From: Trueperaceae bacterium
GTDB lineage: Bacteria; Deinococcota; Deinococci; Deinococcales; Trueperaceae
Direction of reading: 5' to 3'
NCBI GenBank assembly: GCA_040905465.1
Contig: JBBDRK010000036.1
Location: 59,375 to 123,374, forward strand
Length of the DNA: 64,000 nt
The position numbers were made by a program. Every line of letters begins with the position of its first letter. The stretch's first letter is position 1. Of this stretch, positions 1-6,000 are shown piece by piece.

Positions 1-3000
1 GTCTCATGCGCCACGATAACCGTTCGTCGCGCGCTCCCGAGTACCGCGACCGCCGCTCGCCGACGGGACCGTTCGCGGCCGAACGATCTTCAAGGTACCT
101 GATAGCCGCCGAAGCGGACTTCCGGCCGGTACCGTCCAGGATCTTCATCGAGAATCAGGACGACGCTGCGACTGGAGCCCTCCGGAAGCCAATCGACAGT
201 GGTCGCAGAGGTGTCCACCAGGGATTCGTCTTCGTCGAGCAGGTCGACCGACACGCCCAGGGTCTGCACGCTCTCGTCGCCGTGGTTGCGAACCAGCAGT
301 GGCAGGTAGTAGCGGCCGCCCGCTTCCCGCACCGCACCGAGTTCGCCACTGAACTCGGTTGGGGCAGGGGTACGAGTTCCTTCCCATACCAGATAGCCCG
401 CCGCCGCCAGCAGCAGCAGGCCACTCAGCCAGGTGACCGCGATCTGCACCTTGCTCTCGCGGCTCAGCGGGCCGCCATTGCGGCGCTCACGGCCCTCCAC
501 GACGTTGTCGCGCCCCTGGCGGTCGTCCGGCTCCACGGTCTCCATGGCTAGATGATCAACTTCGCGGCGGCCGAACCGAGAGCGTTGACGAACCCGAGAG
601 TGACGATCATATGGAGCGAAGGCACCAGGGCCGTCTCGCTGTCGATGCGACCGAACACCCACAGCAGGAACGCGGTAACCGCGAGCGCCCCGACATAGGA
701 GACGGTACCGGTGCGGAGCAGCGACGCCCACCAGGTAGTTCCGCCCGGCAACCGGTAGCCGCCGGCAAACCCGACCGAGTACACGATGGCGTGGGTCAGG
801 AGGAGTCCGAAAAGGACCAGCAGGATTGCGTGCCACCACAGGAGGCCGAGGGCGATCATCACCGGTTCTTCGGTCGGGGCGATATTCAGGCCGAAATAGG
901 TGGCGCCGGCCAGCCCGATGAGTTGACTGCCCCAGAACCCGGCGCGCCGCTTGCGCCGTTCCCGCCGGGCGTCGTGATCGCCGAACACCGAGATCGCGAT
1001 CGAGGCGCCGATGCTGAGCGGAATAGCCTCCAGGATCACCTTGCCGGCGACCTCGCGAAACGACATGCTCCCGTCTATGACGCCGAACAGGAAGAGCACC
1101 ACTACCGCCACCAGCAGCCCGATCCCATAGGCGTCGACAGCGTCCTGCACCTCCTCCCAGAACAACACGTGGCCCTTCTGGAAGCCGCTGTAGTATTCCA
1201 GCAGGATCAGCAAGCCGAAGTTGGCCACCAGAAACACGAGCAGCTTCAGCGGCGGCATGGTGAAGCCCAGCCACCACATCTCCATGGTGGCCAGTAGCGG
1301 CATGCTCACCAGCAAAGCGCCGAACACGCCGCGGGAGTAGCCGCGCAACGCGCTCCGCAACTGCTCAACCGCTTCGGTCTCGGCCACAGCATCCGTTATA
1401 CGGCCCAGATCAGCCGTTCGCTGTGGCCGAAGAGGGAAACTACCGGCCGGCACTCGCCCTCTAGCGGTGGCCCGCTCAGGCCTGCAACAGGTCCCCCTCG
1501 CGCCAGATGATCTCGATTTCGAGCTCGGATCCCTGCAGCGTGCGCACCAGGTCCTCGAGAGCCTCGATCGAGGTCTCGGCAGTAACCAGCAGTGTGCTGG
1601 GGTCCGCCTGGTACACGGCACCGCTCGCCTGATGGCGATACTGCCAGCGGCTGACCAGGTTGCGAACGTTCGGCGATTCCGATCGGATTCTAACCAGCCC
1701 GCTCATGCCCCCTCGCTTTCCCCCGGGCACCCGCGCCAGGGACATCAGCTTACTCGCGAACCAGGACGGGGACCTGGTGTAGGGTCACGCTGCCCGGCGC
1801 TCGCTGTGTGGATGCGCGCGGCCTGCGCCGCCTGCCCCTCGCCAACGGTGCCGGGCCCGTTATTCGCCGTACGGCACCCAGATGTTCTTCACTTGCGTGG
1901 CGCGCCGCAGGTACTCGCGTCCCTGTGCTTGCCGAACGTCGAACCAGTCGCGCCGCTTGCCGTTGCTGACCCAGGTGGCCTTCAGGTTGCCGGCCGAGGC
2001 CTCCTCCACCTTCGCGCTTCCGGCCTTCCCGGCCATGTACCACATGCAGGCGACCTCGTCGTGGTCGGCCAGGACCGCCGCCAGCTCGTCGCGGTCACCG
2101 GTCACGATGTTCACGACCCCGCCGGGGACGTCGGACGTCTCGAGCACCTGGTAAAGATCGGTGGCAGCCAGCGGCCAGCGGGCCGAGGGAACCGCCACCA
2201 CCCGGTTCCCCATGGCGATCGCCGGCGCCACCAGCGACACCAGCGCCAAAAGCGGCGCCTCGTCCGGGCACACCAGCGCCATGACTCCCCAAGGTTCCGG
2301 CATTGCCAAGGTCACATTGCGGAGCGGGGTGTGGTGCACGGCGCCGTCGTACTTGTCGGCCCAGGCTGCGTAGGTGAAGAGCCGCTCGACCGAGCCGTCG
2401 ACCTCCTGGCGGGCCACGGCCGCCGACACACCTGTCATCGCCGTGATCCGGGCTTCGAACTCACCGGAACGGGCGGCGAGGTTCTCGGCCAGGTAGAAGA
2501 TCACCTGCGCCCGGTTGTGGCCGGTGGCCTGGCTCCAGGCCGACGCCTTGCTGGCCGCCTCGACCGCGTTGCGCACGTCCTTGCGATTGCCCTTGCCGGC
2601 CTCGCCGACGATCGACCCGGTGGGGCTCACCACCGGGTAGCTGTAACCGCCATCGGGACGCGCCTGCTTGCCGCCGACATAGAGCTTGGCGGTGCGGTCG
2701 ACGGGCGGAACGCCGCCGCTGCCGTTGCCGCCGGGAACCGCCGGCAGCCCCTCCACTCCCGCCGCTACGGCGTAGTCCGCCTCATACTGCGGAAGTCCCG
2801 CCTCCCAGCCGGGAACCAGGTACTCGTGGAGCCCTTCGCGGCCTCCCTCACGGCCGAAGCCGCTCTCCCGGTAGCCGCCGAAACCGGCCGCCGCGTCGAA
2901 CAGGTTGGTGCTGTTGACCCATACCACTCCGGCGGCGAGCCTGGGGGCGATGTCGAGCGCCAGGTCGATATTCTCCGTCCAGACCGAAGCCGCCAATCCA

Positions 3001-6000
3001 TAGCGCGAATCGTTGGCCAGCTCCACGGCCTCTCGCGGCGTGCGGAAGGTCATCGAGGCGAGGACCGGACCGAAGATCTCCACCTGAGCCAGCAGCGAAG
3101 CCGGTTCGACATCGGTGAAAAGCGTCGGCGGATAGAACAGGCCCTCCGCCGGCACCGCCCACGACGGTTGCCAGCAACGGGCGCCCTCCGCCTTGCCCTC
3201 CTCGACCAGCTGCTCGATTCGCTGGAGCTGTACCGGAGCGATGATCGCGCCCAGGTCGATGGCCTTGTCCAGCGGGTCGCCCATCCGCAGGGTCTCCATG
3301 CGGGAGCGCAGCTTGGCGTGGAGCTTGTCGGCGACGCCCTCTTGCACCAGCAGCCGGGAGCCGGCGCAGCAAACCTGGCCCTGGTTGAACCAGATCGCGT
3401 CTACCACGCCCTCTACCGCGGCGTCCAGATCGGCATCGTCGAAGACCAGGAAGGGGCTCTTGCCGCCGAGCTCGAGCGAGAGCTTCTTGCCGCTGCCGGC
3501 ACTGCTCTTGCGGATGATCCGGCCCACCTCGGTGGAACCGGTGAAGGCGAGCTTGTCGATGTCGGGATGGTTGACTATCAGCTCGCCGGTGCTGCCGTCG
3601 CCGGTGACGACGTTGAACACGCCGTCCGGCAGTCCCGCGTCGCGGGCGATCTCGGCGAATAGCAGCGCCGTGAGCGGCGTGTATTCGGCCGGCTTGAGCA
3701 CGACCGTGCAACCGGCGGCCAGCGCCGGAGCCACCTTCCAGGAGAGCATCAGCAGCGGGAAGTTCCAGGGGATGATCTGACCGCACACCCCCGCCGGCCG
3801 GTAGTCGGGGAACTCCTCGCTCAGCAACTGCGCCCAACCGGCATGATGGTAGAAGTGCCGCGCCGCCAGCGGTATGTCCAGATCTCGCGTCTCGCGGATC
3901 GGCTTGCCATTGTCCAGAGTCTCGACCACGGCGAACAGGCGGCTGTGTTTCTGCAGCTTGCGCGCCAGGGCGTAGAGGTAGCGGGCCCGGGCGTGCGGCG
4001 CCAACGCGGCCCAGTCATCCTGGGCAGATCTGGCCGCGGCGACAGCCTGCTCGACATCGTCGGCGCCACCTTGCGCCACCGCCGCCAGCACCTGGCCGTC
4101 GGCGGGGTTGACCGATTTGAAGGTCTCTCCGGCTACCGGCGGCTGGAAGCGTCCGGCGATGAAGTGGCCGAAGTTCCGTTCATGGCGGTCGAGCCACAGG
4201 ACCGCCTGCTCGCGCCCTTCCGGCGCCGGTCCGTACTCCATCGTCGCGAAGATCTCCTTGACGCTGCTCACCTCATGCTCCTCAACCTTGCGGGTGACGG
4301 AAATTGGCCGAGTACCGCCCCGTCACGTAATGCTCGAGCTGCCGCTCGATGTCGGCCAGCAGGCTCGACGCACCGAACCGGAAAAGCTCGGGCTCGAGCC
4401 AGGGGTTGCCGAGCTCCTCCTTTAGCAGGAACAGCCACGTAAGTGCCTCCTTGGCGGTCTTGATGCCGCCCGCCGGCTTGAGCCCGACTCGGTAACCGGT
4501 GCGCTCGAAATAGTCGCGGATCGCCCTGGCCATGGTGAGCCCAACCGGCAGCGTGGCGTTCACCGGTTCCTTGCCGGTGGAGGTCTTGATGAAGTCCGCA
4601 CCCGCCATCATCGCCACCATCGAGGCCTTGTAGACGTTGCGCAGCGTTCCCAGCTCGCCGGTCGCCAGTATCGTCTTCATGTGCGCCTCGCCGCAGGCGT
4701 CGCGGAACGCTCGCACCTCGTCGTAGAGCGCCGGCCAGTCGCCCAGCAGGACATGCCGGCGGCTTACCACGATGTCGATTTCGTCGGCGCCGGCGGCTAC
4801 CGAAGCGCGGATCTCGGCGACACGCTGCTCGAACGGGCCGAGCCCCGCCGGAAATCCGGTTGACACAGCCGCCACCGGGATATCGCTCCCCTTCAGGGCG
4901 GCCACGGCAGCGTGAATCATCGAGTGATACACGCACACTGCAGCGACGGTGACGCCTTCGTCGGCAACGCCGAGTTGCTCGAGCAGGTCGGCTCGCACCG
5001 GATTGCGCGCCTTGGCGGCCAGGCGCTTCACGCGCCCCGCGGTGTCGTCACCCGATAGCGTCGTGAGGTCGATCAGGGTCACCGCTCGCAGCAGCCAGCC
5101 CGCCTGCCAGGCCTTCTTGACGCTGCGCCGCGTCCCCATCGTTGCGCTGCGCCTTTCGGCCGCCGACAGGTTCACCTGGGCATGCCGGAACCAGCCCTCC
5201 TCGAGGGGGATACCAGGATTGCGCGCAACCGAACCGTCACCGGCCGATCGCCCCTGGCGCTCGCGTATCGCCACCTCATGCCCCTTTCGAAATTAATCGT
5301 CGGCAACAGCCGTACACAATGTACTCAGTCTACACCCGCTCGAGCCCCGGGGCCCGGCCGGCACGCGGTATCGTTGCAAGGAATCGCGATCCTCGACCAG
5401 CAAAGGAGCTGCCATGAACCTCGCCCGCTTCGCCAGGCGCAGATACACCCCGGAACCGACGCCGCTGGAACCGCTGGAGCATCTCAGCAAACACCTCGGG
5501 GGCCCGGAGATCTGGATCAAGCGTGACGATCTGCTCGGCCTCGCCGGCGGAGGCAACAAGACCCGCAAGCTGGAATTCCTGGTTGCCGACGCCCTGGCCG
5601 AAGGTGCCGACACGCTGGTCACCGTCGGCGCCGTGCAGTCGAACCATTGCCGCCTCACGCTGGCGGCAGCCGTGAAGGAAGGGCTGCGCTGCCGGCTGGT
5701 GCTCGAGGAACGCGTGGCCAACTCGTACGACCCCGACGCCAGCGGCAACAACTTCCTGTTCCGCCTCCTGGGGGTCGAAGCGATCACAGTCGTGCCCGCC
5801 GGCACCGACCTGGCCGATGCTGTCGGCGAGGTGCTCGCCGACCTCGAGGCCGAGGGCCGCAAGGGTTACGCGATTCCGGGAGGAGGGTCCAACGCGCTCG
5901 GCGCGCTAGGTTACGCAGCCTGCGCTCAGGAGATCCTGCACCAGATGTTCAGGCAGAGCCTGACCTTCGACCGGCTCGTATGCGCGAGCGGATCGGGCGG

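Follow-up and report, generated by a model that had tools for sequence, protein, structure and literature searches.

Aldolase-Dehydrogenase Partnerships and the ALDH16 Family

Deoxyribose-5-phosphate aldolase (DERA, encoded by deoC) splits deoxyribose-5-phosphate to give glyceraldehyde-3-phosphate and acetaldehyde. In the DmpFG, BphI-J and HsaF-G systems, an aldolase hands acetaldehyde by channeling to a bound acylating dehydrogenase; in DmpFG, the aldolase is a class II metal enzyme and the product is acetyl-CoA. The DmpFG structure (1NVM) is assigned to the GapDH superfamily in the available passages of a review of aldehyde dehydrogenases (PMC12041015). Another example is the SPU bacterial microcompartment, where, in the accessible part of its description, DERA-derived acetaldehyde is passed to a co-localised dehydrogenase that is described as acetyl-CoA-forming (PMC11585597). 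In type B PutA, a proline dehydrogenase barrel is joined to an ALDH domain and an extra C-terminal Rossmann-like domain, and the review passages liken this extra domain to that of ALDH16 and link it to channeling (PMC12041015).

The ALDH16 family (cd07111) includes the Loktanella enzyme (PDB 6MVR-6MVU) and vertebrate ALDH16A1. In those same passages, medium-chain aldehydes such as hexanal are the only activity given for the bacterial enzyme, and neither there nor in the excerpts of other reviews are a pathway, a DERA partner, or split or fused forms given for the family (PMC12041015). Reviews, as far as their excerpts go, describe the vertebrate pseudoenzyme ALDH16A1 as a protein of unknown function, for which they list maspardin and, hypothetically, HPRT1 as contacts (including PMC12041015). 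In Burkholderia phytofirmans and Paraburkholderia bryophila, a kinase/aldolase deoK/deoC route has been described, with mutant phenotypes on deoxyribose; the portions of that text at hand name no aldehyde dehydrogenase for this route (Price 2019, PMC6365646).

Here, we describe a locus in a Trueperaceae bacterium in which deoC lies directly upstream of an ALDH16 gene. The long DERA and ALDH16 are probably two subunits of one conserved complex for the breakdown of deoxyribose and deoxynucleosides, in which ALDH16 would turn acetaldehyde into acetate, a substrate that we infer and a binding that is predicted, and of which animal ALDH16A1 would be a catalytically dead partner subunit.

The deoC-ALDH16 Locus

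The window analysed here is a stretch of 64,000 nucleotides (positions 59,375 to 123,374 of contig JBBDRK010000036.1); coordinates are positions within it and the genes lie on its minus strand. The deoC gene (4282..5274, minus) encodes a DERA of 330 aa with a Pfam DeoC match, which scores 142 bits against the TIGR00126 deoC model (cut-off 117.3), carries the Schiff-base lysine motif at Lys230 as well as Cys114 (both invariant in 96 aligned rows), and is 60% identical to the DERA part of a Turdus protein, its nearest named animal protein. The alignment with E. coli DERA starts only at residue 62, so that an N-terminal arm, residues 33-63 (5086..5178, minus), lies beyond the reach of the alignment with E. 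coli-type and short DeoC; within this arm, R42, R50 and K53 are invariant in 211/211 paired loci. In a quick tree, animal DERAs fall within a 29-row clade (SH-aLRT 99) together with DERAs that are fused to ALDH16. By its arm and by its grouping with animal DERAs, the window protein is an animal-type long DERA, a type for which the matches among solved structures include neither a representative nor a comparable complex. It is the sole deoC match in the whole genome, and a single deoC match per genome is likewise found in most genomes that carry the pair.

Downstream lies ALDH16 (1860..4271, minus; 803 aa), which matches Loktanella ALDH16 (6mvr) across residues 3-802 (E 5e-297, full length), shares its extra C-terminal Rossmann-like domain, and is 40% identical to platypus ALDH16A1, the nearest named animal protein. 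It contains two Aldedh stretches: a catalytic half, residues 1-487 (2811..4271, minus), and a non-catalytic Rossmann-like half, residues 521-803 (1863..2711, minus). The WNxP motif, Glu267 and Cys301 (codon 3369..3371, minus) are conserved in 211/211 paired bacterial loci, which bears out an earlier statement that Cys301 is invariant; the GQVC motif, which had also been called invariant, is not strictly so, GHVC being common in Actinomycetota. With its Asn/Glu/Cys triad as in the bacterial enzyme, the window protein is, by sequence, of the active type, and the retention of Glu267 points to hydrolysis, giving acetate, rather than to CoA acylation.

The initial annotation had described the pair as a two-gene operon with a 10-bp gap. 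The spacing (4272..4281, minus) stands, with a purine-rich stretch before the ALDH16 start codon; the two-gene operon is one arrangement among several, as a three-gene split form, unlinked genes and fusions also occur. A 13-bp palindrome upstream of deoC (5312..5324, no strand assigned) is a possible operator; the pattern, which was picked after sighting, has this single match in the genome and is absent upstream of DERA in six relatives. No promoter or terminator was detected in a scan for both. The divergent cuyA/cuyB genes and a downstream TIGR02587 gene are absent from the recurring neighbour clusters that were scanned and were treated as unrelated.

The window pair lacks the GapDH-superfamily acylating dehydrogenase and the class II aldolase of DmpFG; it joins a class I DERA to a member of the ALDH superfamily in which the hydrolytic glutamate is retained. 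No microcompartment shell proteins were found in 36 neighbour clusters or in the four flanking window proteins scanned. Type B PutA consists of the same three kinds of module as the pair and differs in its chemistry; identity with it is rejected, as the barrel is DeoC and P5CDH models score below their cut-off.

Co-occurrence and Gene Neighbours

An earlier count, in which 73 of the 80 best ALDH16 loci had a DERA nearby, was reproduced: in 72 it lies upstream at a distance of up to about 360 bp and on the same strand, one (L067) has it about 2 kb away, and seven lack it, two of these being cut by contig ends. Four phylum-wide samples, 564 genomes of related and thus not independent members grouped around four centre genomes picked for carrying the pair, cover Deinococcota, Pseudomonadota, Actinomycetota and Bacteroidota. 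Across them, ALDH16 accompanies long DERA in 101/101 genomes (one ALDH16 copy being truncated at a contig end), and in three of the four samples no ALDH16 match was found in the genomes whose DeoC is solely of other types (162 in all, 52+36+74). Among 61 Deinococcota, nine carry long DERA and eight a full ALDH16; in the ninth, a contig end leaves residues 1-76 of ALDH16. Among 201 Pseudomonadota, all 20 genomes with long DERA are shared with the 21 that have ALDH16, the extra copy being cut by a contig start. In Actinomycetota (n=151), the two sets of 38 genomes are identical, and in Bacteroidota the C-terminal half of ALDH16 is present in 34/34 long-DERA genomes. The partner is also retained where the genes are apart: 6/6 ALDH16 loci without adjoining DERA have one elsewhere in the genome, as 3/3 DERA loci without adjoining ALDH16 do in reverse, and 4/4 actinobacterial loci without the C-terminal half encode it elsewhere (one of these frameshifted). 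An ALDH16 gene also lies on pSymB of Sinorhizobium meliloti (882513-884891).

The commonest pathway neighbours in 265 loci are pyrimidine-nucleoside phosphorylase (33), DeoD (20), DeoB (18) and PunA (17), followed by cytidine deaminase and ribokinase-like proteins (8 each). Some pair operons also carry a kinase, RbsD/FucU, sugar ABC genes or DeoR, and a Caballeronia relative has the order deoC-ALDH16-RbsD/FucU-rbsK-ABC. In the window's own genome, matches to pdp, deoB, deoD, punA, rbsK and cdd lie away from the locus. Some operons with RbsD/FucU, an aldose epimerase and sugar ABC transporters whose specificity is not given could suggest that long DERA mainly cleaves another deoxy-sugar phosphate, with ALDH16 oxidising, for example, lactaldehyde or glycolaldehyde; this is very improbable, given that nucleoside phosphorylases and phosphopentomutase predominate among pathway neighbours, and that the DERA passes the deoC equivalog model and is mostly the only deoC match of its genome.

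Split and Fused Forms

In Actinomycetota and most Bacteroidota matches, ALDH16 is encoded by two genes behind deoC, the catalytic and the C-terminal half each having its own. Stand-alone C-terminal halves among short proteins were mostly contig-edge fragments. Full-length DERA-ALDH16 fusions form four 90%-clusters (1130-1184 aa, 60-78% alike), which have a common 16-residue linker, keep both catalytic residues and form one clade (SH-aLRT 99); one such fusion sits on a 1.3-Mb contig. Most of some 26 DeoC+Aldedh "fusions" were partial or had junk linkers and are likely frameshift artefacts, while two long candidates (P0291 and P0304) are without the catalytic Cys. An alignment in which the fusions were mixed with rows of separate DERA and ALDH16 proteins came out misaligned and was discarded.

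The AlphaFold2 fold of fusion P0301 (pLDDT 86.9, pTM 0.75) was not counted for binding because no inter-domain error is given. In a Foldseek search with the fusion model, PutA was among the top matches after ALDH16, and a whole-chain rmsd of 17-21 Å to PutA indicates that the barrel is placed elsewhere.

A Predicted Complex and the Human Pair

The complex prediction for DERA and ALDH16 reached 0.87, as opposed to 0.00 for the best of three controls. The mark applied is reached by 116/157 solved complexes and 2/215 mismatched pairs, a calibration that holds here only roughly, because ALDH16 was cut (residues 3-487 plus 601-803), one copy of each protein was folded and custom alignments were used. 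The runs share at least 97% of contacts, with partner pLDDT of at least 93. In the model, DERA docks mainly via its N-terminal arm, the main predicted contact surface, and via outer helices, and the predicted dock on ALDH16 comprises the N-terminal helix and the conserved YGPAPE motif, residues 3-17 (4221..4265, minus). It is also in this arm that the residues peculiar to long-type DERA are concentrated. At several interface positions the actinobacterial split form has other residues, and interface conservation exceeds the protein average in 6/8 Cys-less ALDH16 proteins and in only 1/5 eukaryote-type DERAs. The model supports, and does not show, that the two proteins bind each other, and the case for a physical complex is stronger than the initial annotation had made it.

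In agreement with a statement made there, human ALDH16A1 and DERA are listed together in the tables of hu.MAP 2.0 and Burke 2023. HuMAP2_03576 is the binary complex ALDH16A1-DERA, with confidence 2 ("very high"), and ALDH16A1 is present in both of the two hu.MAP 2.0 complexes listed for DERA. The edge Q9Y315-Q8IZ83 is found in the "highConfidence_models" file of Supplementary Data 1 of Burke 2023, a set defined by pDockQ > 0.5; "DERA" is absent from the main text of that paper, and the human pair was found in the form of table rows. These rows describe the same two families as the bacterial pair, listed as a binary complex and modelled with confidence, and differ in that they make no tie to gene order in bacteria, to a pathway or to a mechanism and concern an inactive human ALDH16A1. 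Because animal ALDH16A1 is without the catalytic Cys and is still listed with DERA in the human tables, it has most likely been kept as a DERA subunit with a structural or regulatory role.

An explanation by pathway coupling without binding, through co-regulation, joint horizontal transfer and freely diffusing acetaldehyde, would draw on the usual gene adjacency, which by itself gives co-occurrence, and on inter-protein covariation in 211 pairs, where the top scores form a clique that tracks clades (shuffled pairing z 8.0), so that this analysis does not count as evidence. It is nevertheless improbable, as unlinked genes still co-occur, fusions exist, the complex model passes, hu.MAP 2.0 has the human orthologues as a binary complex, and the residues particular to long DERA gather in the arm at the model interface. 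Among covariation pairs outside the clique, D39-A284 and D286-A327 fall inside the model interface, and D143-A291 and D98-A443 outside it.

Proposed Function

The functional link between DERA and ALDH16 that had been proposed for this locus gains support from a less biased sampling of genomes, from nucleoside-catabolic neighbours, from fusions and from the passing complex model. In the proposed mechanism, DERA would cleave deoxyribose-5-phosphate to glyceraldehyde-3-phosphate and acetaldehyde, and ALDH16, docked on the N-terminal arm of DERA, would oxidise this acetaldehyde with NAD(P)+ to acetate, which would pull the reversible aldol cleavage forward and clear a toxic product. Self-protection of DERA is a weak rationale, because in the accessible portion of one study E. 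coli DERA loses activity only at 100-300 mM acetaldehyde (PMC6016325). Direct channeling of acetaldehyde from DERA to ALDH16 is speculative and rather doubtful: the interface contains only residue 210 of the loops presumed to form the active-site face of DERA, so that no tunnel is shown.

Evidence that the catalytic Cys is lost in animals while the pairing is kept, and a model without docking of active site to active site, would also suit a real complex of structural purpose, in which ALDH16 serves to stabilise or activate the long DERA and has as its substrate glyceraldehyde-3-phosphate, the open-chain sugar phosphate or an aldol by-product such as crotonaldehyde. The hexanal activity of Loktanella ALDH16 is in line with this, as is the report, in the same portion of that study, that crotonaldehyde inhibits DERA more than 100-fold more strongly than acetaldehyde (PMC6016325). 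We consider this explanation unlikely, since the catalytic residues are invariant in all 211 bacterial pairs, acetaldehyde is a stoichiometric product that needs removal, and the SPU microcompartment, in the part of its description available, likewise couples DERA to an aldehyde dehydrogenase for which acetaldehyde is the proposed substrate (PMC11585597).

An extension of the preferred reading, which we hold only tentatively, is that of an ancient DERA-ALDH16 machine, built as two genes, three genes or one fused chain, that passes acetaldehyde from site to site; animals would have inherited the complex and lost the dehydrogenase chemistry, keeping ALDH16A1 as DERA's obligate scaffold or regulator. 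If this were true, ALDH16A1 phenotypes (the gout variant, kidney) would have their origin in the breakdown of deoxynucleosides.

Together, these observations would place the ALDH16 family in a pathway, supply it with a partner and a predicted interface, and explain an undiscussed human interactome row by bacterial gene order, splitting and fusion. Loss of ALDH16A1 should then alter DERA stability or activity. The pair would also add an aldolase-dehydrogenase pairing of folds unlike those of DmpFG, and long DERA is itself an uncharacterised type without a close solved structure, a point of interest in that acetaldehyde limits DERA as a biocatalyst. In B. phytofirmans and P. bryophila, a deoC-adjacent gene has presumably been re-annotated as an acetaldehyde dehydrogenase in a fitness database. 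The acetaldehyde role of ALDH16 may already be present in such re-annotations, and its novelty may have been put too high in the initial annotation; no match to such a re-annotation was found in the Price 2022 supplements. A search for the B. phytofirmans locus itself gave matches in other taxa. A literature search found no published statement of the DERA-ALDH16 pairing beyond the human interactome listings. Weighing against the acetaldehyde role, the genome of the window holds about 11 further ALDH loci that could remove acetaldehyde.

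The deoC-ALDH16 pair and its surroundings

The minus strand of the window carries a 330-aa open reading frame for the deoC product deoxyribose-5-phosphate aldolase (DERA, 4282-5274), which passes the deoC equivalog model and is the sole deoC match in the genome (95% complete), and, 10 bp downstream, an 803-aa frame for aldehyde dehydrogenase family 16 (ALDH16, 1860-4271). The Loktanella ALDH16 matches this entire frame (E 5e-297), ordinary aldehyde dehydrogenases (ALDHs) align only to residues 30-485, and Glu267 and Cys301 are invariant in 211/211 paired loci. In this genome the pair is isolated, with upstream pathway enzymes on other contigs.

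An identical run of 10 bases, GCATGAGGTG, lies across both gene starts (minus strand, 5272-5281 and 4269-4278), each copy having an out-of-frame ATG immediately 5' of the GTG start. Divergent to deoC across a 140-bp gap are cuyA (D-cysteate sulfo-lyase) and cuyB (cysteate racemase) at 5414-7146 on the plus strand, both exceeding NCBIfam cut-offs, after which come genes for a 2-hydroxyacid dehydrogenase and a peptide-type ABC transporter. Between deoC and cuyA is a 13-bp palindrome (5312-5324), present once in the genome and absent upstream of DERA in six relatives. Beyond the 3' end of ALDH16, the same strand encodes a TIGR02587 (DUF2391) membrane protein (90-1621), which is not among the recurring DERA-ALDH16 neighbours scanned.

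Co-occurrence of DERA and ALDH16

Both proteins were searched in the same evenly drawn phylum samples (those of Pseudomonadota, Actinomycetota and Bacteroidota take their names from named centre genomes), with E cut-offs set from observed score gaps. Among 61 genomes of the window's own phylum, taken as Deinococcota because the closest named partial matches carry the label Trueperaceae, nine have a long, animal-type DERA (E < 1e-100, the remaining DeoC matches lying above 1e-26) and eight a full ALDH16, all eight common to both; in the ninth, G059, an ALDH16 fragment (residues 1-76) 1.2 kb downstream runs into a contig end. The 201 Pseudomonadota genomes yielded 20 long DERAs and 21 ALDH16s, of which 19 pairs are adjacent (gaps 11-320 bp) and one spans a contig break, the extra ALDH16 (genome G242) being truncated by a contig start. 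In Actinomycetota (151 genomes, including unpublished positives G288, G317 and G379 and negative G327), 38 long DERAs and 38 ALDH16s fall in the same genomes, 34 of them within 5 kb on one contig. Long DERAs occur in 34 of 151 Bacteroidota genomes (E < 1e-70); the C-terminal half of ALDH16 was matched in 26 at 1e-45, all among the 34, and in the other eight via a closer query, scores here being so close to both cut-offs that weaker members were possibly missed. In total, ALDH16 is present in 101/101 long-DERA genomes of the four samples (one copy cut by a contig end), a count in which related genomes are not independent and the four centre genomes were chosen for having the pair. No ALDH16 match was found in the 162 Deinococcota, Pseudomonadota and Actinomycetota genomes whose DeoC is exclusively of the short or E. 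coli type, although split ALDH16 could escape the strict cut-offs for full length that were applied to the first two phyla.

The initial annotation had proposed a conserved pair from 73 of 80 ALDH16 loci with a nearby DERA, a count that was reproduced; a second, partly overlapping ALDH16-centred set gave 79/80. Around 80 DERAs, ALDH16 was adjacent in 67, near in four, cut by a contig end in six and absent from three loci. The missing partner lies elsewhere in the genome for ALDH16 loci without DERA (6/6), DERA loci without ALDH16 (3/3) and actinobacterial loci without the C-terminal half (4/4), and the link is therefore more than adjacency; it is real and well supported. Unlinked genes that are both present were seen in Chloroflexota (loci L022, L034, L049 and L471) and a Truepera MAG (L013).

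Two-gene, split and fused forms

Three architectures were found, namely two genes as in the window, three genes with a split ALDH16, and one fused chain. In Nonomuraea, separate genes behind deoC encode the catalytic half (472 aa) and, after it, a Rossmann-only half (281 aa); ALDH16 is split in 76/80 actinobacterial loci and fused in 0/80. In Bacteroidota, 23 of the 26 C-terminal-half matches lie in open frames of ~290-320 aa, and the one inspected directly is split. Four fusions (P0127, P0305, P0301 and P0298; 1130-1184 aa, mutually 60-78% alike) have a common 16-residue linker and both catalytic residues, and their DERA parts form one clade; P0301 comes from a Rhodospirillales MAG, on a 1.3-Mb contig. 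A further fusion, P0327, may be independent. Shorter "fusions" were discarded as likely artefacts. P0289 carries the label Artemia franciscana, shares 73% identity with the window DERA and runs on into an ALDH16 fragment; it is likely bacterial contamination or a chimera. A large phosphomutase (PGM/PMM)-DeoC fusion family (P0312, P0337-P0404; ~840-890 aa, some labelled Acidimicrobiales) is probably a fused phosphopentomutase-aldolase.

A predicted DERA-ALDH16 complex

Structure prediction with ALDH16 residues 3-487 and 601-803 and DERA 18-328 gave a complex score of 0.87, against 0.00 for the best of three controls, with contact agreement between runs of at least 97% and partner pLDDT of at least 93. 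The score mark is reached by 116/157 solved complexes and 2/215 mismatched pairs, counts that apply only roughly here because our own alignments and a cut ALDH16 chain were used. Sequence and fold searches of solved structures returned ALDH16 only alone and no long DERA, which makes it less likely that the prediction passed by memory of a like complex. The model favours binding, short of demonstrating it; a direct complex of the two enzymes is predicted and very probable.

On the DERA side, the modelled interface comprises the N-terminal arm (33-63) and residues 101-106, 210, 250 and 281-293. Arm residues R42, R50 and K53, invariant in 211/211 long DERAs, fall outside the region alignable to other DeoC types. 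The ALDH16 side comprises the N-terminal helix and YGPAP motif (3-17), the helix preceding the catalytic loop (279-291), residues 126, 130, 327, 336-339, 433, 453-454 and 651-652, and the C-terminal PYGE; segments 126-130 and 279-291 presumably flank the substrate entrance, as in ALDH2 anatomy. Two findings count against the binding model: several predicted interface positions differ in split ALDH16, and conservation there is mixed in eukaryote-type DERAs.

Pathway context and a probable role of ALDH16

In a survey of 265 loci (several per organism allowed; 36 neighbour clusters scanned), recurring neighbours included pyrimidine-nucleoside phosphorylase (33), DeoD (20), DeoB (18), PunA (17), cytidine deaminase (8), a ribokinase-like kinase (8), nucleoside hydrolase (7) and NupC (6), alongside unrelated genes specific to particular lineages, for example ABC transporters for phosphate and metals. 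Annotated plasmid operons combine the pair with rbsK, RbsD/FucU, sugar ABC transporters and DeoR regulators. In five Acidobacteriota loci (L434, L437, L440, L441 and L473) a second, ordinary ALDH (~500 aa) stands directly 3' of ALDH16; it is broken in L433.

The sequences show that both genes are intact, that they co-occur almost one to one, that ALDH16 can be split or fused to DERA, and that pathway genes recur nearby. ALDH16, bound directly to DERA as predicted, would likely convert the acetaldehyde released by DERA to acetate; oxidation of that acetaldehyde had already been put forward in the initial annotation. The main rival, a structural complex in which ALDH16 acts on another substrate, appears improbable. 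The activity given in the available passages of ALDH reviews is towards hexanal, with vertebrate function unknown and with maspardin and HPRT1, not DERA, as named partners (PMC12041015, PMC8160307, PMC10650815). Channeling of acetaldehyde from DERA to ALDH16 is speculative and less likely than not; it is suggested by analogy with type B PutA, whose modules are of like kinds but differently arranged. ALDH6A1 is a CoA-acylating ALDH. Because ALDH16 keeps Glu where ALDH6A1 has Asn (as noted in one of the ALDH reviews above), CoA acylation by ALDH16 is argued against.

The component families are known, as is the aldolase with a partner dehydrogenase as a kind. The deoC-adjacent gene of certain Burkholderiaceae has presumably been re-annotated as an acetaldehyde dehydrogenase in Fitness Browser/GapMind; if so, the acetaldehyde substrate is already partly known. 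For these bacteria, the available text of Price 2019 (PMC6365646) reports phenotypes for the kinase/aldolase route and names no dehydrogenase. The literature searched, with most subscription papers and the bioRxiv supplements outside its reach, held no statement of the DERA-ALDH16 pairing, and no printed source turned up that assigns ALDH16 as DERA's partner, describes its split or fused forms or draws the connection to the human pseudoenzyme.

Animal proteins and divergent ALDH16-like proteins

The pair had been offered as a lead for vertebrate ALDH16A1. For human proteins, hu.MAP 2.0 (PMC8111494) lists a complex consisting of ALDH16A1 and DERA alone and rates its confidence "very high"; both DERA-containing complexes there include ALDH16A1. 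The pair is also present in the high-confidence model file of Burke 2023 (PMC9935395), in whose main text "DERA" is absent. A quick tree groups animal DERAs with the DERAs of bacteria that have a fused ALDH16. The named animal ALDH16A1 proteins, from platypus, snake, cichlid, pond snail, horseshoe crab and thrips, all lack Cys301 but retain acidic residues at positions 283, 287 and 291 or close by; the pseudoenzyme state is therefore not confined to vertebrates. Nematode DERAs (P0326, P0319) are long-branched, and in the one checked the predicted interface is lost (12% identity there versus 41% overall); the ALDH16 partner may perhaps have been lost in nematodes. Many divergent ALDH16-like proteins of 720-830 aa (P0129-P0239) lack the catalytic Cys, some of which may be frameshift artefacts and others further pseudoenzymes; one cluster, labelled Candidatus Berkelbacteria, retains it.
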